NCBI GenBank assembly: GCA_963701295.1
Contig: OY969585.1
Location: forward strand, 768,001-832,000
DNA length: 64,000 bases
Direction: 5' to 3'
Source of the DNA: Ignavibacteriota bacterium
GTDB lineage: Bacteria > Bacteroidota > Ignavibacteria > UBA10030
Part shown: piece by piece, positions 50,963 to 61,317 of the stretch
How the letters are laid out: each line of letters begins with the position of its first letter
Position numbering within the stretch: the stretch's first letter is position 1
Translations under genes and position numbers: made by a program
The notes under the pieces: generated by a model
Told to the model about the DNA's origin: nothing
The model's database searches: none
Seen by the model: the letters and a program-made list of their open reading frames with translations, nothing else

Positions 50963-53900
50963 TTAATATATAGGTTTCTCTGTTTTTTCCAATTCCTCAA
51001 AATATTTTCGTATCAACTCCTGATAATCTTTGGAATACCCTTGCTCCAGGGCTTTCAGGAGCTCTTCCTGTAATTGATTTTTCCCTTCCAGCGAATTCCA
51101 ATCCAGATCTTTTGGACTGCGGCGCGTAATTTGTGTACCGGTTTCTGCTTTACGTTTCTTCTCATAGTCACGTTCATGCGTAGATTTAGAAGCATCCAGA
51201 AGACGGGAAAGAATGCGTTCCTGTCTCTTGATCGTTTCGGGATTTACATTATTCTGTTCGAGATTCTTGACAACTTCATTCATTTCTTCCGCAATTTTTT
51301 GAAGATCACCCAATAATTTCTTCTGATCGCCGCTTTGCTGTGCTTCACGATTCAACTCCTCAAGTGATTTCTGGATTGCTCCCTGTTCTTTCGCCAGCCG
51401 AGCCGCTTCTGCCGCTTGCTGCGGAGACATCCCGCCCATTTGTTGTGTCTGCATATTGAGAGACATTTGCTGACCTGCCATCATTTGTAATTGCTGCATG
51501 AGACTTCCTGCACCGCCTCCGCTTCCTCCTTGCATCATTGCTTGTAGCGCATTCTCCACTTGCATTGCTGCGCGATTAAGTGCCGCCATAGCTTGTTGCT
51601 GTTCTTGTGACGCCATCGCACCGTTTCGCATATCCAAAGCGCGCATGGCATTATTCATTCGTGCCAATGCCTCACCAATTGCTTTGCCCATTTCTGGTGT
51701 TACAGCAAAAGATTTTTGCGATAACTCGCTCAATCCATTAATGATATTGTTCAAGTCTTGAGCAACACGCTGCTGCTCCTGCGCATTTTGCCGAAGCTGC
51801 GGAGAATTCTGCGGGGCTTGTTGTGATTGCTGCTTCAGTGCTTCTTCATCTTTCGAAAGTTCCAAGATATTATTGATCGCTTTGCGCATTTCGTTCATCA
51901 CATATTGCGATTGCTGCTGAAGCATCTGCTGCTGCATTGCATCCATTTGCTTGCTGAACTGCTTGAGTTGTTCTCCAGTCTCCTTCTGTGTTTGTTGTGC
52001 CGCCTGTATGTTTCCCGTTTGCATTTGCTGCGACGCTTGCTGCATCTTTTGACCCAATTGCTGCTGCTGCAATTGCTCCAGAGATTTCTGCAGCTTATCT
52101 GCGGGCATTTCAGTAAAGAACTCTTCCATTCGGTGTTGAAGATCAGCGGCTTCGCGTTCCATCGCCTGTTCTTTCTTGGCAAGATCAGCTTGTTTTTTTG
52201 CTAATTCTTGCTGTCTCTGAGAGTCGTTGGATGCCTTCGAACTTTCTTCCTGCAATTCCTTCTCCAACTTCTCCAACTCCTGCGCACGTTTTTTCACTTC
52301 ATCCATTTTCTGTTCGATCTGGAGGCGTTTAAGCAGGTTCATTGTTCGCTCTATGCTCTGGCGAAAACGTTCTTCAGAGAAGGTCATGTTTTGCATTGCC
52401 TGCTGGAGCTGCTCTTTGCTGATGTTCGGCATCTGCTGCTGCAATTGCTTGAGCGTCTTCTGTAATTCCGTGGCATCAAACTGCTGGAAGAGCTGCTGAA
52501 GCTCCATGTATTTCTCCATAGTTTCTTTCGAAAGCACGTTTTGCTGTTGCATCTGCTGTGCCATTTGCTCAACACGGGATTGCACATTCTCCAGTTTCCT
52601 TTGTACTTCTTGGTACTGCTTTGCCATCTCTTCCATCTTTTTTTGTGTCTGCCAATCGGGATCCTTGTTCTTCTTCAAGTCACGGTTGATAGACTCAATA
52701 TTCTCTTTCAATTTCTTTGCATCATCAAATGACTGCTTCAGATCATCTATCGAACGTTCATGTTCTTTATCAACATCGGAAAATACTTCATCTAGTGAAG
52801 GAAGCCGGAGAAGATAAAGATTGCTGCGTCCGCTTTTCGGGCCTGTGATTGCATCGTTATCAAAAACTTCTGCGAAGTATTCAACAACATCTTCCGGTAC
52901 AAGATTGAGGTTGGTGAGGTTCCAGGTGTACGACAATTCAACCTGTCCCTCAGGTGCTTCAGGGAGAGGAATCGAAAAAAAGGTATACTCAGATTGCGCC
53001 TGTTCGTAACGCGATTTCACTAACCTATAACCGAGACGCATGCTAGAAAATCCGAAATCATCTTTTGCTTTTAAAAAGAGTGGAATCGATTGATCGCCAG
53101 CAATATCAATGTTACGGCCTGGATCGATGATCGTGATAGTGGGAAATTCGTCTTTCACTGCTTTCAGTTGGTAGTGCACGGGTTCGCTATTTGACAATCC
53201 TTCTTCATCAAGAAGAGAGATACAGTATGAATTATCTGAAGACAGAGGAAACGATGCAAAGAATTTTTCTCGGTGTATTGTAAGCATCAGCTTCGTATTG
53301 TTTCCGAATTGTATAACTGCTTCTCTTAATGATTTGCTTGCTGTCCCTGCTATGGTAACACGTGTACCTATCAATGCCGTAACATCACCGACAAACTCAT
53401 CCATCATTTTCGGCGGGATTTTTGTATAGGAAGGATAATCGAGGCGCACACGAAATGATCGTATCAACGGACGATCCAACACGGTGAGTTCATAGCGTTC
53501 ACTTTCAGCATCGGCATATTGAACATAATACATTGTCGTTGTGTGAACAGCCTCGAATGTTGTGTTGAACACACCAATTGAATCCGGTTTGACTTTTAAT
53601 TCATCGAAATTTTCCTGTCCCGCCTGCTGTTGAAAAATAATAAGTTCCTTTGTACGCAGTGTAAATTCCGGAAAAAGCGAAGTCACCTTCACCCGCACAT
53701 CAATATTCTCGCCTTTGACTATTTCTTTATTACCTGGTGAAAGTTCAATTTGATACTTCGGTGGCGGTGTAAATTCTTTTGTACAATGAATCAATCGGTA
53801 TGCCGCACCGGAAATCGATGCAGGAAACATGAGAAATATCAAGATCGCACTACCGAGACTCATCATCAGCCAGCGGCGATATTTGGGAAGACGGGTTGTA

Positions 53901-54367
53901 TTCACAGATTGCGCGAAATCGAGCAGTTGAATTTCTTTAGCAAAATCCTTTAATGTTTCATCAATTAATTTCGTTGAGTAAAACTTAGAAGCCAAATCGA
54001 TTTCTTTCGCAAGCTGAAGAGCATTCAACAACCTATCCTTGAGAGAAGAAAAGAATGCGCCAACGTGTCTCGCGATCTCATCTTCTGTGATCGATGACAG
54101 CGCACCGATCAATCGCAGGAAAGGACGACCGATCATCCAACTGCCGGCACACATAAGCGATAGAGTAGAGAGAATGGCGATTATCGTTCTCGCCATTTTG
54201 GAAAAATCGAACAATGTCTCTGCGAGAACAAGCATTGTCGTTGTAACGAGTACACCAGCACAAAAAACGAGAGTATTCGAAAGGAGATCCACGCGGTTCT
54301 GTCTGTTACGAACCAGACGTATTCGATGCGACAGCATTGTTAATATAGTAGAAGATCCTTGCATCAT
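50963..54367 (-). CDS. DUF4175-like membrane-anchored protein with Ig-like domains and Gln-rich coiled coil
   Basis: DRLLNALQL, AKDDFG, YFAEV.DND..GPK, Q/M-rich C-half, IL.RLL, Y..LI.KYF. Confidence 0.82.
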   Translation of the reverse strand: MMQGSSTILTMLSHRIRLVRNRQNRVDLLSNTLVFCAGVLVTTTMLVLAETLFDFSKMARTIIAILSTLSLMCAGSWMIGRPFLRLIGALSSITEDEIARHVGAFFSSLKDRLLNALQLAKEIDLASKFYSTKLIDETLKDFAKEIQLLDFAQSVNTTRLPKYRRWLMMSLGSAILIFLMFPASISGAAYRLIHCTKEFTPPPKYQIELSPGNKEIVKGENIDVRVKVTSLFPEFTLRTKELIIFQQQAGQENFDELKVKPDSIGVFNTTFEAVHTTTMYYVQYADAESERYELTVLDRPLIRSFRVRLDYPSYTKIPPKMMDEFVGDVTALIGTRVTIAGTASKSLREAVIQFGNNTKLMLTIHREKFFASFPLSSDNSYCISLLDEEGLSNSEPVHYQLKAVKDEFPTITIIDPGRNIDIAGDQSIPLFLKAKDDFGFSSMRLGYRLVKSRYEQAQSEYTFFSIPLPEAPEGQVELSYTWNLTNLNLVPEDVVEYFAEVFDNDAITGPKSGRSNLYLLRLPSLDEVFSDVDKEHERSIDDLKQSFDDAKKLKENIESINRDLKKNKDPDWQTQKKMEEMAKQYQEVQRKLENVQSRVEQMAQQMQQQNVLSKETMEKYMELQQLFQQFDATELQKTLKQLQQQMPNISKEQLQQAMQNMTFSEERFRQSIERTMNLLKRLQIEQKMDEVKKRAQELEKLEKELQEESSKASNDSQRQQELAKKQADLAKKEQAMEREAADLQHRMEEFFTEMPADKLQKSLEQLQQQQLGQKMQQASQQMQTGNIQAAQQTQKETGEQLKQFSKQMDAMQQQMLQQQSQYVMNEMRKAINNILELSKDEEALKQQSQQAPQNSPQLRQNAQEQQRVAQDLNNIINGLSELSQKSFAVTPEMGKAIGEALARMNNAMRALDMRNGAMASQEQQQAMAALNRAAMQVENALQAMMQGGSGGGAGSLMQQLQMMAGQQMSLNMQTQQMGGMSPQQAAEAARLAKEQGAIQKSLEELNREAQQSGDQKKLLGDLQKIAEEMNEVVKNLEQNNVNPETIKRQERILSRLLDASKSTHERDYEKKRKAETGTQITRRSPKDLDWNSLEGKNQLQEELLKALEQGYSKDYQELIRKYFEELEKTEKPIY

Positions 54368-54430
54368 TTATTCACACAATCACAAAATTACTCAACCGCA
54401 AATCATAAACTTTTTATTCTTCAATCATGT

Positions 54431-55099
54431 TTAATGTGTCAGCGCCCAAACAACAATATTGGTTCCGAATCGCAATGCTTCCTGTCGTACCGATTCAGGA
54501 TCACCGTGTTCTTCCGGGTCATCCCAGCCATCGCTTGGATTCGATTCATACGTATAATAGGCGACAAGTCGCCCTTTAAAAAACAACCCGAATCCCTGCG
54601 GTGGTTTTCCATTGTGCTCATGTGTTTTCGGTACACCATTGGGGAAATCAAAATGACAATGGTACAACCCATAGCTGAAAGGTAATTCAACAAGCTCTTG
54701 GTCGGGGAATACTTTTTTTATCTCACGTCGAAATGCTTTATCCAGTCCATAATCATCGTCAGCATACAAAAATCCGCCTTGCTGAAGATATAAGCGGAGT
54801 CGCTGAACTTCATAATCCGAAAAAGAGATATTGCCATGTCCTGTCATAAAGAGGAATGGATACGAGAAGAGTTTATCGCTGGAAAGATCGACAAATTCAT
54901 ACCGCGGGTCGCAATCGATGTTGGTGTTTTGTTGGACGAATTTTAGCAGATTGACTTCTTCTGTCGGACCGTTGTACCAGTCACTCCCGCCACTGTATTT
55001 CAGGCGTGCAATGCGAAATTGAGATTCTATGCGTGGTTGTGCGTCTATCCTATGCAATCCACACAAAACAACGAGTAATGAATAACTGATTATTCTCAT
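54431..55099 (-). CDS. DUF4159 family exported protein
   Basis: ARLKY.GG.DWY, YPFLFMTGHG, GGFLYADD.YG, PKTHEH, DGW, G.N; start likely ATG 55099. Confidence 0.88.
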   Translation of the reverse strand: MRIISYSLLVVLCGLHRIDAQPRIESQFRIARLKYSGGSDWYNGPTEEVNLLKFVQQNTNIDCDPRYEFVDLSSDKLFSYPFLFMTGHGNISFSDYEVQRLRLYLQQGGFLYADDDYGLDKAFRREIKKVFPDQELVELPFSYGLYHCHFDFPNGVPKTHEHNGKPPQGFGLFFKGRLVAYYTYESNPSDGWDDPEEHGDPESVRQEALRFGTNIVVWALTH

Positions 55100-55191
55100 T
55101 ATTACACTTCCCAATCTTACAATCACTCAATTCTATATACTCACTACAATCAATGTAGAAAATGGTGATGCGAGAATCAAACGATGATATC

Positions 55192-55250: not shown

Positions 55251-56762
55251 ATGAACACCACCAAAATCTTCTTTCCCTTCGTTTTTTGTATTCTCGTTTT
55301 CTTCACCGACTGCCAAGCACAAAAGGAACGCATTGACCGCCAGCCTGCAGTGGCGGGACAATTTTATCCGGCAAGTCGCGAAGAACTGAATTCTACACTA
55401 AAACAACTTTTCTCAAAAGCAGTGCCATCAAGAAATATCAAAGACGTCATTGCCATCATCTCACCGCATGCTGGGTATGTGTTTTCGGGAGAAGTGGCAG
55501 CGTCGAGTTTTAATCAACTTGACACGGAAAAAAAGTACGAAAATATTTTTGTTCTCGGTTCGAGTCATTATGTTGCGTTTGATGGAGCGTCGATCTATTC
55601 GCAAGGCAATTTTATTACGCCCTTTGGTACAATAAAGGTAAATACTGAGCTTGCCAATCAACTCATAAACAAGAATAGTATTTTCTCCAATCGCACGGAT
55701 GCTCATGCACGCGAGCACAGTCTGGAAGTACAGCTTCCATTTCTTCAATACCTGTTGAAGAAGGATTTTAGGATTGTTCCCATTATCCTTGGTACACAGT
55801 CGCCGGAAACCTGCAAGCGCATTGCCGAAACATTGAAACCGTATTTGAATTCAAAAAATCTTTTCGTCATCAGCACCGATTTTTCGCACTATCCATCATA
55901 CGACGACGCCAAGAATGTTGATAAATCCACTGCAGATGCGATTCTCACTAACTCACCGGAAAATCTCATCCGTTCTCTAGCGAGCTATGAACGGAAAGGT
56001 ATTTCCAATCTTGCCACGTGCCTCTGCGGATGGACAAGTGTGCTGACGTTGATGTATATGACGGAAAATAATCCGGACATCACCTTTACGCACATTCAAT
56101 ACAAAAATTCTGGAGACACAGAGTACGGCGAAAAGAACAGAGTCGTCGGTTACAACGCGATTGCAATTGCGTTGAAGGAAAGAAAGGCTCATACAGAATT
56201 CAAGCTCAACGATAAAGATAAGAAGGAACTGCTGCTGATTGCACGCAAGACGATCATTGAATATGTGAAAAATCGCAAGACGCTAGAGATAGACGAGAAG
56301 GATCTATCACCAATGACGAAAACAAATTGCGGCGCTTTTGTCACGCTGAAGAAACATGGCGATTTACGCGGTTGTATCGGTCGTTTCGATGCAAGCGAAC
56401 CGTTGCACAAAGTAGTACAGGACATGGCAATTGCGTCGTCAACACAGGATTATCGATTCACACCGGTTGCGCCCGATGAAATTCCGGAATTAGAAATTGA
56501 GATCTCCGTGCTTACACCAATGCGGCGTATTTTTTCCGTAGATGAAATCGAATTGGGAACGCATGGCATTTACATCAGAAAAGGACAGAACTCCGGAACA
56601 TTTCTGCCACAGGTGGCTACGGAAACCGGATGGACAAAAGAAGAATTTCTCGGCCACTGTGCGCAGGATAAAGTCGGCATCGGTTGGAATGGATGGAAAG
56701 GTGCCGAGTTGTTTGTATATGAGGCAATAGTTTTCAGTGAAAAAGCATTAGAAGGTAAGTAA
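55251..56762 (+). CDS. amrB: AmmeMemoRadiSam protein B/A fusion (Memo-like plus AMMECR1) with N-terminal signal peptide
   Basis: PAVAGQFYP, PHAGY, EHSLEVQLPFL, STDFSHY, CG, VGY; GAFVTL, LRGCIG, EISVLTP, FLPQVA. Confidence 0.92.
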   Translation: MNTTKIFFPFVFCILVFFTDCQAQKERIDRQPAVAGQFYPASREELNSTLKQLFSKAVPSRNIKDVIAIISPHAGYVFSGEVAASSFNQLDTEKKYENIFVLGSSHYVAFDGASIYSQGNFITPFGTIKVNTELANQLINKNSIFSNRTDAHAREHSLEVQLPFLQYLLKKDFRIVPIILGTQSPETCKRIAETLKPYLNSKNLFVISTDFSHYPSYDDAKNVDKSTADAILTNSPENLIRSLASYERKGISNLATCLCGWTSVLTLMYMTENNPDITFTHIQYKNSGDTEYGEKNRVVGYNAIAIALKERKAHTEFKLNDKDKKELLLIARKTIIEYVKNRKTLEIDEKDLSPMTKTNCGAFVTLKKHGDLRGCIGRFDASEPLHKVVQDMAIASSTQDYRFTPVAPDEIPELEIEISVLTPMRRIFSVDEIELGTHGIYIRKGQNSGTFLPQVATETGWTKEEFLGHCAQDKVGIGWNGWKGAELFVYEAIVFSEKALEGK

Positions 56763-56769
56763 CTCTACG

Positions 56770-57912
56770 ATGCTGAAGAAAGAATTTCCAAAAATCTCTA
56801 AACGCGAATTTCTTCGTCAATGCGCTTTTTGTGCTGGAGGACTTGCGCTTGGAGTGTACAGACCAAATGTATTTTCTATTTCATCGGACATTGATTTAGG
56901 AAAGTTTAGCAAGGAAGCACTCTTCTACACAAAAACCTCCGATGGATTGCAATGTGAAAAGTGTCCACACGGTTGTTTGTTACTGAATGATGGCGATGTT
57001 GGATTCTGCCGCAATCGTGTTGCAAGCAATGGAAAAATCTATTCCATCGCGTACGGTAATCCATGCGCGGTGCATATCGATCCGATCGAGAAGAAACCAT
57101 TTTTCCATTTTCTTCCGACGACACACGCGTTCTCTATAGCTGTTGCTGGGTGCAACTTCCGCTGTCTCAATTGTCAGAATTGGCAGATCTCGCAGATCAG
57201 TCCGAAGGAATCCGACAACATCGATTTAATGCCGGAGGAAGTAGTCAAAGCTTGCCTAGCAACCAAATGTGAATCAATTGCTTACACGTATTCCGAGCCG
57301 ACAACCTTCTACGAGTACGCATATGATACAGCGAAGCTTGCAAGAGAGCAGAAGATTCACAACGTTTGGAAATCCGCCGGCTACATTAACGAAAAACCTC
57401 TTCGTCAATTATGCAAAGTGATGAATGCGGCAAACATCGATCTGAAAATATTCGACGATGCAATATATGCAAAGCTCAGTGCTGGCAAACTTGCTCCGGT
57501 CCTCAGAACACTGAAAATTTTCCATGAAGAAGGTGTTTGGTTAGAAATCACCAATCTTGTTATTCCGACCTGGACAGATAATTTCGATACTATCAAAAGA
57601 ATGTGCGAATGGTTATGTTCCAACAATCTATCGGATACGCCACTACACTTCAGCAGGTTCACGCCGCTTTATAAACTTAGCCAGCTTCCTTCCACACCGA
57701 CTGAAACGCTGGAAAAGGCGCACGCAATCGCAAAAGAATCAGGAATCAAGTTTGTCTATCTTGGCAACGTAGCCGGACACTGGGCAGAAAACACATACTG
57801 CCCAAAGTGCAAGAAAATCATCGTCGAAAGGCGTGTGTTCACAATCCTGAGCAATAACATCGTGAAGGGGAAGTGTAAATTCTGCGGAGAAAAAATCTCC
57901 GGCGTTTGGTAA
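56770..57912 (+). CDS. amrS: AmmeMemoRadiSam radical SAM enzyme with Tat-like N-terminus
   Basis: DPIEKKP.FHF.P, GCNFRCLNCQN, AYTYSEP, NIDLK, PLHFSRF.P, Y.GN, C..C...C..C; N-terminal SKREFL. Confidence 0.93.
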   Translation: MLKKEFPKISKREFLRQCAFCAGGLALGVYRPNVFSISSDIDLGKFSKEALFYTKTSDGLQCEKCPHGCLLLNDGDVGFCRNRVASNGKIYSIAYGNPCAVHIDPIEKKPFFHFLPTTHAFSIAVAGCNFRCLNCQNWQISQISPKESDNIDLMPEEVVKACLATKCESIAYTYSEPTTFYEYAYDTAKLAREQKIHNVWKSAGYINEKPLRQLCKVMNAANIDLKIFDDAIYAKLSAGKLAPVLRTLKIFHEEGVWLEITNLVIPTWTDNFDTIKRMCEWLCSNNLSDTPLHFSRFTPLYKLSQLPSTPTETLEKAHAIAKESGIKFVYLGNVAGHWAENTYCPKCKKIIVERRVFTILSNNIVKGKCKFCGEKISGVW

Positions 57913-57918
57913 TATCTC

Positions 57919-60162
57919 ATGGATCGACCACAAGCACTTACACTGCACGTATCTCTCGTTTACATCGGTTTCGGTTCCATCCTCACACAAATTCTTCTTA
58001 TTCGTGAATTCCTCGTTAGTTTCTATGGCAACGAACTAAGTATCGGCATAATCTTTTCTGGCTGGCTGATCTGGATCGGTATCGGAAGTACCGTTGGAAA
58101 CAAGTTGATCAAGAGATTGCAGAGTATCTCGCATCTTTTCTTTATTCTCATCGTTTTAACGCCGCTCGTGACGTTCATGCAAATCCTCGCTGTGAAGTTT
58201 GTCCGAGCGTTTTTACACATTCCAACCGGTGAATTCCTCTCTATGATGGAACTCTTTGGTTTTTCATTTTCGGTTCTCAGTGTTGGATGTTTTTTGTGGG
58301 GGATGCTATTTACACTTGGTGCAAAGATGTTCTCATCAGAAAAAGAAGAACTCTGGCGAGGTGTGAATAAGGCATATGTGTTGGAATCTATCGGAAGTGT
58401 CGCCGGTGGATTGCTTTTTACGTATGTACTTGCATCATTGTTCTCAACTCTGCAAACTGCGTTTTTTTTGCTTTTCAGTACTTGGAGTATGGCGTTTTGG
58501 CATGGTTTGAAAATCAAGAAACAGTTCAAGACAGTCGCTCTTCTTTGTCTCATCGTCTTGTATTATATTTTTTTCCAGCCAATCCGTACGCTTGAACGCC
58601 AGATGAATGCATACGAGTGGTCGCTCATCAACGATAAACTCACATTCGTACGATCGATTGATACAAAATACCAGAATCTCTCGCTTCTCCGTCTGGAAAA
58701 TCAATGTACGATTTACACAGACGGGCGTCCGGCGTACAACATCCCCAACACCTACGAAGCCGAAGTCTTCATACATTCCATTCTGGTTCACCGTTTTGAT
58801 GCAAAGCGTGTGCTTCTTCTCGGCGGTGGATTCAATGGCATACTCAAAGAAATATTAAAATATCCTGTTCAAGAGATAGAGTACGTGGAGATCGATCCCG
58901 CACTTCTTCCCTTTGTCGAACCGGTATTGGACAAACAAAATCAGCAAGCACTTCGAGATCCTCGAGTTAAAATTATATCTGGAGATGGGCGCGAATTTCT
59001 ATCTCGGAATCAGGGTTCCTTTGATGTTATCATCCTGAATATTGGAGAACCGTCGACGGCAAGTTTGAATCGTTTCTTTACCTTGGAATTTTATCAGCAA
59101 TGTTCAACCCGATTGACATCAGATGGTATTCTTGCATTTTCTGTCCCTTCCTCTGCCGAATATATTACAGATGAAATGAAAAACCTGAATGCTTCCATCT
59201 ATCATACATTCAAACAGGTATTCCAGACTGTATTAGTCATACCCGGTGATCACGCCATTTTGATAGGATCGCGGAGTCAAAGACCGTTCATACAAGACCC
59301 TGATTCGCTTGCACATCTCTATGCGATTACAAAAATTTCAGCAGAGTACTTTTCAAAATACATGTTTGAAGAAAAGATGCCACCTGAGAGAATCAAATAT
59401 ATCACAAACGCGTTGGAATCTGTACAAGACTATAGAATCAATACCGATACTGATCCTGTGACATACTATTTCGACTTATTGCTCTGGAATCGATTTCTGC
59501 ATGGAGACAACAGATTTTTTTCTTCCATTAGTCGTACGGGAATATTTGTTGTTGGCGCTCTTGCTGTGGGAATTCTATTCATCATCCTTGTACGTCGCAG
59601 GCAAATTGAAAAACGGGAGCGGAACGCACTTGCTATCATCATAGCCTGTGGAGGAATGATCGGCATGGCACTCAATCTTCTCCTTTTATTGAATTTCCAA
59701 GAAACGTTCGGATCTATTTATGAAATGCTGGGTGCAATGTCGGCCGTGTTCATGCTTGGGTTGGCACTGGGAGCGATGTTTATTGTACGAATCACTCAGA
59801 ATCACAAGATGAAGTTCATCTTGCTTGTTGTTCTCATTGCACTTGTGAGTCTTGTCCTTTTATTGCCGCATTTGTTACATTTTTTGCTTCGCATGCGTTC
59901 CATGCCATTCACACTTATCATCACTATGTCCTGCGGCGGACTCATCGGAATGTTATTTGGGATTGTCAACCGGCTTTATTCTCATCGCGCAACAGATCTT
60001 GGCAGTATCTATGCTTATGATGTATTCGGCTCTTCTGTCGGTGCGTTGATAGCGTGTTCTCTGCTCCTGCCGGTGCTGGGAATTCAAGAAATGACCATGT
60101 TCCTAACGCTCGTCCTCGTACCAGCAATGATTGCAGCAATATTTACTCAGAGAGGTTTCTAA
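57919..60162 (+). CDS. Polytopic membrane protein with central spermidine-synthase-like SAM-binding domain
   Basis: About 7 TM, T.YQ, VLLLGGG, VEID, DGR.F, FDVII, FT.EFY, NTD..P, about 6 more TM. Confidence 0.85.
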   Translation: MDRPQALTLHVSLVYIGFGSILTQILLIREFLVSFYGNELSIGIIFSGWLIWIGIGSTVGNKLIKRLQSISHLFFILIVLTPLVTFMQILAVKFVRAFLHIPTGEFLSMMELFGFSFSVLSVGCFLWGMLFTLGAKMFSSEKEELWRGVNKAYVLESIGSVAGGLLFTYVLASLFSTLQTAFFLLFSTWSMAFWHGLKIKKQFKTVALLCLIVLYYIFFQPIRTLERQMNAYEWSLINDKLTFVRSIDTKYQNLSLLRLENQCTIYTDGRPAYNIPNTYEAEVFIHSILVHRFDAKRVLLLGGGFNGILKEILKYPVQEIEYVEIDPALLPFVEPVLDKQNQQALRDPRVKIISGDGREFLSRNQGSFDVIILNIGEPSTASLNRFFTLEFYQQCSTRLTSDGILAFSVPSSAEYITDEMKNLNASIYHTFKQVFQTVLVIPGDHAILIGSRSQRPFIQDPDSLAHLYAITKISAEYFSKYMFEEKMPPERIKYITNALESVQDYRINTDTDPVTYYFDLLLWNRFLHGDNRFFSSISRTGIFVVGALAVGILFIILVRRRQIEKRERNALAIIIACGGMIGMALNLLLLLNFQETFGSIYEMLGAMSAVFMLGLALGAMFIVRITQNHKMKFILLVVLIALVSLVLLLPHLLHFLLRMRSMPFTLIITMSCGGLIGMLFGIVNRLYSHRATDLGSIYAYDVFGSSVGALIACSLLLPVLGIQEMTMFLTLVLVPAMIAAIFTQRGF

Positions 60163-60177
60163 CTTTTTTCTCAATTT

Positions 60178-61317
60178 CTATCGAGTCCTTTGTCCTACGA
60201 ATTGTTGAACCCGTTTATCGAGTTGGGGCAGACTACCATCCCGCAAACATGCTTGCAGGTACGTCAAAACAAAAGAGCGGGCTCCATTCATTAGTGTTGC
60301 CGTAAGCGCCGGCCTGCCAAGGTGGGTGTCAATCTCATATGCCATCCGTAGCCCAGAAGTAGCTCCGTAATTGCCTTCGAACGAACCGGAAAGATTCGCA
60401 TCCATTAGTAGTTCCTGTGCGCGTGCACGTGTTAGATTCGGCGACAGTATTTCCCCAAGGACACGGTTCAGCATGTCCACTGCTTTTGATGTCTCGTCAA
60501 ACCACTTTCGAGCAGGAGTCTCTCCTCCAAGATGCGTTTGCAGAGAAAGGTAGTACGCAACACCTTCATTCTGTACTATCTCAAGCAGTTGATCAGCAAT
60601 GTTTCTTGGCCTTAGTGAGTCAGGGAGGGATTTCTGCAGCACGGAAAATGCGGCATGGAAACGTTCATGCGCTGTTGTGCTAAGCACTTCAATGAACTGA
60701 GCGTGTTCGTTTGGTGGCCCTTCAATCAGGCGAGCGAGATTGACAACAATAACAGGTTCTCCTTCCCCTTCGTTGACAAATGTGGGAGTGTCAAAATTCC
60801 ATACAACCCGGCGCACAAACGCAGTGGCTCGTTCATTTCCAATTACAACAAGATACACCGAAAATCGAGTAGAAATTTTTGCTTGTTCCGGAAAAAATGA
60901 GGCGATCGTTGCAACAATACGACGATCAAGCTGTCGTTGTTTAATAGTGTTGAGAAGTTTTCGAAGCTCAGGTATGTGATTTTTTGCGGGAAAAAAACCA
61001 TAAACATCACTTTCGAATCTCGTAATATTCCGCGCCAGTTCAAGCTGGTCACGGAAGTCATCATCCGATTTCGTCGTGCGTGCCAGCATCACGCTTGTAG
61101 CTGCCGCAAGTTGATTACCGCGAAGTTTCGCAACACGATCTGCATTGCCGCTTTGGCGATCAAAAAAATCAAGTGTCTGCTCAGCGGCACTGTAGTCGAC
61201 TCCCAGCGAGAACTCAAAGTTCGGATGTGTTTGTGCGCGTAAAACCTCAGTCGTCAAACTAAGGGATAGCATCATTGCTACAATTGTGTTTACGATGGTA
61301 TATGATTTAAAGTTCAT
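60178..61317 (-). CDS. Exported zinc-dependent protease (DUF5700-like)
   Basis: Signal peptide (LRA-Q), HERFH, EGVA, Y...G..MA..I. Confidence 0.75.
   Translation of the reverse strand: MNFKSYTIVNTIVAMMLSLSLTTEVLRAQTHPNFEFSLGVDYSAAEQTLDFFDRQSGNADRVAKLRGNQLAAATSVMLARTTKSDDDFRDQLELARNITRFESDVYGFFPAKNHIPELRKLLNTIKQRQLDRRIVATIASFFPEQAKISTRFSVYLVVIGNERATAFVRRVVWNFDTPTFVNEGEGEPVIVVNLARLIEGPPNEHAQFIEVLSTTAHERFHAAFSVLQKSLPDSLRPRNIADQLLEIVQNEGVAYYLSLQTHLGGETPARKWFDETSKAVDMLNRVLGEILSPNLTRARAQELLMDANLSGSFEGNYGATSGLRMAYEIDTHLGRPALTATLMNGARSFVLTYLQACLRDGSLPQLDKRVQQFVGQRTR

Follow-up and report, generated by a model that had tools for sequence, protein, structure and literature searches.

The stretch of DNA analysed here, the window, comprises 64,000 nucleotides of the genome of an Ignavibacteriota bacterium (assembly GCA_963701295.1, contig OY969585.1, positions 768,001 to 832,000) and encodes a variant of the AmmeMemoRadiSam system whose two enzymes are likely to work in the periplasm. 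Three open reading frames (ORFs) lie on the + strand in a tight array, with intergenic gaps of 7 nt and then 6 nt (Table 1), as a first-pass annotation of the DNA letters had described them. Indeed, (i) the first gene encodes a fusion of AmrB (Memo) and AmrA (AMMECR1), which matches TIGR04336 (260 bits, cut-off 26) and TIGR04335 (157 bits, cut-off 99), respectively, (ii) the second encodes the radical S-adenosylmethionine (SAM) enzyme AmrS, which matches TIGR04337 (333.7 bits, cut-off 220), and (iii) the third, designated gene 3, encodes a membrane protein matching PF01564 / NF037959 (42.2 bits, cut-off 40). AmrA, AmrB and AmrS, relatives of which include human AMMECR1 and MEMO1, are clustered and all pass their NCBIfam cut-offs, as in AmmeMemoRadiSam loci. 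The site motifs are intact, namely RGCxG and DxR-aromatic in AmrA, the His/Asp/Cys site in AmrB and CxxxCxxC in AmrS, and the PHAG, RGCxG and DxRF motifs are kept in 69 of 69 fusion orthologues. The AmrA motifs were defined in PMC2034487, which also describes an association of AMMECR1 with a radical SAM enzyme and with a dioxygenase fold (papers are cited here by PMC number). A fourth conserved gene was not found among 615 clustered neighbour ORFs, which held only lineage-local families, and DUF362 in four loci.

Table 1. Features of the exported AmmeMemoRadiSam operon, with their positions in the window
Feature	Positions	Strand	Remarks
AmrB (Memo)-AmrA (AMMECR1) fusion	55251..56762	+	503 amino acids (aa); putative catalytic motifs intact
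Sec-type signal peptide	55251..55319	+	signal peptidase I cut before Gln24 likely; lipoprotein Cys21 possible
AmrS radical SAM enzyme	56770..57912	+	380 aa; fold nearest pyruvate formate-lyase activating enzyme
Tat-like signal S-K-R-x-F-L	56770..56910	+	helix 11-28, low-confidence linker, then core strand residues 48-55
CxxxCxxC cluster motif (C128, C132, C135)	57151..57174	+	invariant, 68 sequences
Gene 3, MFS-fold membrane protein, candidate SAM exporter	57919..60162	+	747 aa; 6+2+6 helices
Spermidine-synthase-fold, putative SAM-binding domain of gene 3	58588..59526	+	between helices 7 and 8; predicted outward-facing, AmrS-docking

The host genome also encodes, elsewhere, AmrS, AmrA and AmrB without a hydrophobic leader, this second AmrB having no Sec-type signal, and this set serves as an internal control. 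Judged from these sequences, the window operon is a second copy of the system. In a core-only AmrS tree from which the signal was excluded (a quick IQ-TREE run on a sample of 81 of 178 rows), 51 signal-clade rows split from 30 others with a Shimodaira-Hasegawa-like approximate likelihood ratio (SH-aLRT) of 95; FastTree on the 178 rows gave the signal-clade branch a support of 0.41, or of 0.96 if one signal-less archaeal row was included. By these trees, signal-bearing AmrS is one clade spanning several bacterial phyla and DPANN archaea. The window operon thus differs from ordinary AmmeMemoRadiSam loci in that both of its enzymes bear export signals, its AmrS belongs to a clade of its own, a partner of the major facilitator superfamily (MFS) is near-obligate and a signal-less set exists alongside; the system to which the cassette belongs is known but lacks an assigned function. 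No published description of an exported variant was found in literature searches of main texts; Burroughs et al. 2019 may describe it, and this survey of Memo-AMMECR1-radical SAM contexts (J Biol Chem 294:10211) is said to link Memo to base and isoprenoid modification. Two further arrangements were observed: a signal-less amrS-amrB pair directly upstream of the exported cassette (locus L056) and, in the host genome, a stand-alone Memo-like protein with a Sec-type signal (G000:C1:1590170-1591207, L294), a similar gene being present in L064.

The first-pass annotation had read a leader of the general secretory (Sec) type on the fusion and a twin-arginine translocation (Tat)-like N-terminus on AmrS. 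Judged solely by pattern, hydropathy and eye, both signals are present. Unconserved signals and true starts lying downstream had been named beforehand as points on which the claim could fail; the signals are kept and the upstream starts hold. The Tat-like motif, every time with Lys-Arg, occurs in 117 of the 120 best AmrS homologues, the other three being two 5'-truncated sequences and one with K-R-x-F-T. Fusion orthologues carry Sec or lipoprotein-like leaders, save the signal-less Bacteroidales and truncated or odd cases. Later starts were rejected: in the fusion, the following start in frame is codon 34, which falls within the conserved Memo core, and in AmrS it is a GTG at codon 29. The loose Tat motif is rare in the host genome (16 of 2899 ORFs of more than 150 aa), where a Rieske-motif protein, one of these 16, shares the S-K-R-x-F-L variant; TatC is encoded in this closed genome of 3.6 Mb. 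The window AmrS carries the Lys-Arg variant of the Tat-substrate motif, and many orthologues carry a canonical S/T-R-R-x-F-L-K-like motif. Lys-Arg Tat signals exist naturally (TtrB) and by mutation (PMC1182353).

The wider locus set was drawn from the best 80 of 571 genome loci, 79 of which passed the score filter. A Tat-like motif together with gene 3 occurs in 58 of these 79 loci, the motif only in 5, gene 3 only in 4 and neither in 12. The 16 motif-less loci include five split forms, six signal-less Bacteroidales and one plain membrane anchor (L069), the rest being a frameshifted gene, a gene cut at its 5' end, a gene whose motif lies behind an in-frame stop and an unclear case. RR, KR or RK motifs, many with AxA sites, are present at 27 of the 30 best loci of a Desulfobacterota-type phylum, in a ranking that favours rows with such motifs. 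Signal-less AmrS proteins start at a K-E-A-x-F/W strand, which is the strand after the signal in the window AmrS. Four Tat-type AmrS proteins (L160:11068-12312, L207, L208, L209) have a small insert behind the first strand that contains CxxCH, with a His further downstream, a candidate c-type haem site or zinc site. In L172 and L213:3285-4367, exported amrS has as its neighbour another radical SAM enzyme, which reads as PflX-like and bears an R-R-x-F-I-K leader.

Split loci offer a separate view of the signal. In Nitrospirota, in two Gammaproteobacteria and in genome G413, AmrS begins at its first Cys pair, and downstream of it lies a 43-68 aa reading frame with R-R-x-F-L, a hydrophobic (h-) region and the missing strand of AmrS; in L083 the Tat-carrier reading frame is joined to AmrB. 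These sequences suggest hitchhiker export through strand complementation. Hitchhiker Tat heterodimers such as hydrogenase and arsenite oxidase likewise have signal and folded enzyme on separate polypeptides (PMC13673990), a likeness that concerns the split loci of relatives and not the window; the split-locus carrier differs in being merely a 43-68 aa peptide that ends in AmrS's own first beta-strand. For L200 and L193, in which AmrS is signal-less, scanning the adjacent DNA for ORFs brought up no carrier peptide. Upstream of split amrS in L076:7710-7995 and L083:200-480, a small membrane protein ends in an E-A-x-W-Y strand like the first strand of AmrS and is possibly a second docking anchor. 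In a Woesearchaeota locus, tatC (by Pfam) and a TatA-like ORF sit between amrBA and gene 3, and TatC is rare in the class containing Woesearchaeota (3 of 151 genomes). One of these rare TatC genes (L158:8419-12668, genome G263) lies near a pair that reads as Rieske-like and cytochrome b-like.

It is very improbable that the N-terminal extensions are mere membrane anchors or relics and that the enzymes act on the cytoplasmic face, for example on RNA or a membrane isoprenoid. Such a view could draw on the Tat peptide of the window AmrS, which has a weak h-region, a Lys-Arg motif and no clear AxA cleavage site and does not match Pfam TAT_signal, on two small archaeal genomes (0.8 and 1.0 Mb) with Tat-like AmrS in which a TatC match was not found, and on the prediction of AMMECR1 as an RNA base modifier (PMC2034487, PMC4075521). 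Against it stand the canonical S-R-R-x-F-L-K motifs and AxA sites of many orthologues, tatC inside the archaeal locus, the split Tat carriers, the Sec or lipoprotein signals on the fusion, the predicted outside position of the gene 3 partner domain and the extracytosolic FMN-binding fusions described below. Uncleaved Tat anchors are known (PMC13673990), which fits the absence of a clear cleavage site in the window AmrS.

A cross-genome comparison of signal-bearing AmrS with gene 3, proposed in the first-pass annotation, gave the expected association. Among 201 genomes of the host's own phylum, AmrS is present in 61 and gene 3 (at least 200 bits) in 8; every genome with Tat-extended AmrS has gene 3 (8 of 8), as do 0 of the 53 other AmrS genomes, of which the 22 with inspected N-termini include none with a Tat motif (0/22). 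In the phylum of locus L066, gene 3 is present in 61 of 151 genomes, and in 30 of the 33 with an extension-containing AmrS among the matches listed, 100 lower-scoring ones lying outside this list. Gene 3 lies within the locus at 58 of 63 Tat-motif loci, and elsewhere in the genome for two of three exceptions tested. All these counts include related genomes and are hence not independent. In a nested lineage of Bacteroidales, the Tat signal, the fusion signal and gene 3 were all lost jointly; an orthologue of gene 3 was not found in four genomes of this lineage, for which a control genome gave 899 bits.

Gene 3 consists of six helices, helix 7, a soluble domain, helix 8 and six further helices (14 in total). 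Its model (mean predicted local distance difference test, pLDDT, 85.7) shows the two six-helix bundles of an MFS protein and aligns with the MFS protein SV2A over residues 1-745 (Z 27.9, root-mean-square deviation (rmsd) 3.9, 350 aligned residues), and the soluble domain aligns with spermidine synthase 3anx (Z 29.5, rmsd 2.9, 292 aligned). Matches in ESM Atlas bear spermidine-synthase labels only. The predicted-inside loops hold a mean of 13.3 Lys/Arg residues and the outside loops 2.1, in the same sense in 54 of 54 orthologues, which by the positive-inside rule places the soluble domain outside and the N-terminus, as in MFS proteins, inside. Gene 3 shares with proteins labelled spermidine synthase or 'fused MFS/spermidine synthase' (NF037959, PRK03612) the fold and the adenosyl-binding Glu324 and Asp356, but its domain is inserted between the MFS halves, is predicted to lie outside and is without the aminopropyltransferase aspartates. 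Indeed, the Asp of GGGDG is missing in 54 of 54 orthologues and the catalytic Asp (DxxDP) is kept in 4 of 54, being replaced by Asn in 37. Spermidine synthesis by gene 3 was rejected on these counts (0/54 and 4/54). Since E324 and D356 are retained and these aspartates are lost, the domain likely binds SAM and is, by its residues, no aminopropyltransferase. Polar helix residues are invariant in both MFS halves (Q24, R29, N38, E39, Y153, Q594, D701). In L046, L047, L048, L052 and L056, gene 3 is extended at its N-terminus by a further membrane domain of 110-200 aa, for which Pfam gave nothing above cut-off, and the host genome encodes a different protein with MFS and spermidine-synthase domains, the latter C-terminal, among PMT_2 glycosyltransferase genes near a pilin-like ORF (G000:C1:722939-733829, L293).

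Complex modelling, another of the checks proposed at first pass, placed the outer domain of gene 3 on AmrS. ESMFold2 gave gene 3 residues 224-536 with AmrS residues 44-380 a score of 0.77 (runs 0.66, 0.83 and 0.77; best control 0.01), with a contact agreement of at least 88% and a partner pLDDT of at least 81; of the solved pairs, 116 of 157 scored up to the mark, and of the mismatched ones 2 of 215, a calibration that is only rough for the alignments used. The modelled interface joins the open active-site face of AmrS (by reading) to the near-invariant Q262, Y415, Y477 and R491 of gene 3, Y415 touching AmrS residues 99, 100 and 140. Furthermore, conserved interface positions of AmrS decay in the lineage that lost gene 3 (a drop of 0.20 over 18 positions, vs 0.00 over 135 others); the drop is 0.36 in L069 and 0.16 in split forms, and 0.02-0.05 in four lineages that keep gene 3. 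The model supports a binding of the gene 3 outer domain to AmrS. Structure searches turned up no solved AmrS or similar complex. The earlier wording that the third gene 'supplies, senses or uses SAM' can be narrowed to an MFS-fold protein that has an outward-predicted SAM-binding domain, is by its residues no aminopropyltransferase and is predicted to bind AmrS.

Gene 3 could itself be an enzyme or a target of the exported system, that is, a methyltransferase in series with AmrS, a substrate presenter or a protein modified by AmrS; this is unlikely, though the most serious of the competing views. It would agree with position 305, which is mostly hydrophobic across the 54 orthologues (I 19, M 9, F 6, L 5), as in putrescine N-methyltransferase, and with the Tyr415 loop, which in the model crosses the active-site face of AmrS like the loop of a glycyl-radical enzyme in its activase. 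SAM is kept out by the Asp of GGGDG, and an enzyme with Ile in its place no longer makes spermidine and shows weak methyl transfer (PMC3725402); the same paper has an Asp-to-hydrophobic change at this site mark conversion to a methyltransferase, by which analogy gene 3 may be catalytic. The putrescine N-methyltransferase pattern combines an Asp-to-Ile change in the decarboxylated-SAM site with a kept catalytic Asp; in gene 3 the first change is present in kind, and the catalytic Asp is mostly Asn. Against the view stand this Asn, the polar residues that never vary in either half of the MFS fold, and the occurrence of the same architecture with an unrelated enzyme that consumes SAM, as described below; SAM would, moreover, still require an exit route.

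This unrelated enzyme was met through a paralogue of gene 3, first found in L082 and present in 51 of 151 genomes, whose architecture matches that of gene 3 over the full length (hhalign 99.9%, 698 columns). Of the 30 best loci of the paralogue, 19 include a protein-L-isoaspartate methyltransferase no more than 1.5 kb away, and in 17 the methyltransferase has a clear signal peptide. This type of protein therefore goes with two exported enzymes that are unrelated and have nothing in common but their need for SAM, and the case for SAM export rests chiefly on this. Amr and isoaspartyl methyltransferase genes adjoin in only 3 of 30 loci (L258, L272, L260), so that no systematic link between them is claimed; there the methyltransferase adjoining the Amr genes is signal-less with a signal-less AmrS in two and signal-bearing with a signal-bearing AmrB in one. 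It is rather improbable that gene 3 is an importer or salvage carrier, for 5'-deoxyadenosine, methionine, S-adenosylhomocysteine or the Amr product, with lysed cells or some other route providing the SAM outside. An outward ligand-binding cap would suit uptake equally, and transport direction cannot be read from sequence; yet the loci hold no other recurrent transporter neighbour, and environmental SAM would presumably be an unreliable cosubstrate. As a wider and tentative proposal, which we hold to be somewhat less probable than its negation, the 6+2+6 MFS proteins with a spermidine-synthase-fold cap could be a general SAM export machine of anaerobic bacteria and some archaea, one subfamily docking a Tat-exported radical SAM enzyme supplied with NosR/NapH-like electrons and another serving exported isoaspartyl methyltransferases, in a joint periplasmic protein repair or maturation in which Memo/AMMECR1 would act on proteins and not on RNA.

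Radical SAM enzymes require a reduced Fe-S cluster, electrons and SAM, all of which are normally cytoplasmic. Possible electron carriers are encoded at or near some loci: gene 3 is fused to FMN_bind and Fer4_5 in L200 and to Fer4_5 in L058, and FMN_bind/Fer4_5 modules or DUF362 adjoin amrS in L201, L038, L202, L203 and L210. A NapH-like gene is present in 8 of 8 own-phylum carriers, vs 19 of 193 other genomes, and that of the host (C1:2550743-2553229) lies with a Tat-motif DUF362 protein. NapH-like flavinylated proteins feed extracytosolic reductases, and the FMN_bind and Fer4_5 modules of some loci are shared with the flavinylated NosR/PceC (NapH-like) proteins that feed Tat-exported Fe-S enzymes (PMC8238504), with the difference that the acceptor here would be a radical SAM enzyme; neither that paper nor a 2026 Tat review uses the term 'radical SAM' in its main text. 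AMMECR1 counts as a marker of anaerobes (PMC13386939), which would suit an oxygen-sensitive cluster outside the cell.

Taken together, these data argue, with a confidence barely above even for the reading as a whole, for a scheme in which AmrS leaves by Tat with its cluster in place, AmrB-AmrA leaves by Sec, gene 3 both exports SAM and hands it on, and a NapH/NosR-like chain supplies the reducing power. AmrS would, very probably, gain its [4Fe-4S] cluster in the cytoplasm and leave folded via Tat, possibly anchored by its uncleaved signal, and AmrB-AmrA would be exported by Sec. On balance, gene 3 would carry SAM outward, and perhaps methionine and 5'-deoxyadenosine back; its outer domain would dock on AmrS and hand over the exported SAM. 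Electrons may come, a proposal about evenly poised, from a NosR/NapH-like membrane polyferredoxin, here probably the DUF362 and Fer4_5 pair of the genome. A 5'-deoxyadenosyl radical would then take hydrogen from the substrate, and the AmrA cysteine and AmrB metal site would finish the reaction.

Besides the atypical Tat peptide of the host AmrS, the two archaeal genomes and the methyltransferase-like change discussed above, several observations weigh against this reading. The interface side of gene 3 is conserved no more than the rest of its domain (0.50 vs 0.52), and the SAM-binding E324 and D356 lie outside the listed predicted interface. Gene 3 is absent from 3 of 33 genomes with Tat-extended AmrS and from the genomes of L054 and L069, both enzymes of the latter looking membrane-targeted, and the joint loss in Bacteroidales should be counted once and not six times. 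For methyltransferases with a signal, the enrichment in genomes with either transporter family is weak (11 of 13, vs 10 of 17 for signal-less ones, background 89 of 151), and genome G404 gave none in this comparison. Finally, only a minority of the loci have an electron carrier next to them, and 19 of 193 system-less genomes have one too.

That the system acts on an envelope substrate is something we can only infer. Such a substrate could tentatively be an exported protein undergoing repair or maturation, which we favour over a lipid or glycan, without giving it an even chance, since the closest match of AmrS is an enzyme that activates a protein and since each compartment has a copy of its own; the latter suggests a housekeeping service on proteins. 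RNA is probably not the substrate. In structure as in sequence, AmrS is best matched by the pyruvate formate-lyase activating enzyme (Foldseek E 6.9e-15), from which AmrS differs by its score (56 bits, cut-off 232) and its extra Cys-rich N- and C-terminal domains; it falls outside the activase family, and no glycyl-radical enzyme was found among the recurrent neighbours of amrS loci.

The operon is flanked upstream by divergent DUF4159 and DUF4175 genes (window 50963-55126, - strand) and downstream by a convergent gene for a signal-bearing DUF5700 putative peptidase (60178-61317, - strand), common only to close relatives. Promoter and terminator scans remained at chance level. One RNA run, with a share of 0.06, gave contigs that were mostly less than 95% alike and therefore represent relatives' sequence.

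Human relatives of Memo and AMMECR1 are linked to disease, and the present system bears on their function. A copy working where RNA is absent argues against the published prediction of RNA modification: for an exported copy, RNA base modification (PMC2034487, PMC4075521) cannot hold unless the chemistry diverged. Organisms with both copies permit clean comparative knockouts. If the proposed reading is true, radical SAM chemistry would reach a new compartment, gene 3 would be a first candidate SAM exporter, and the labels 'spermidine synthase' and 'fused MFS/spermidine synthase' would be wrong for thousands of proteins.

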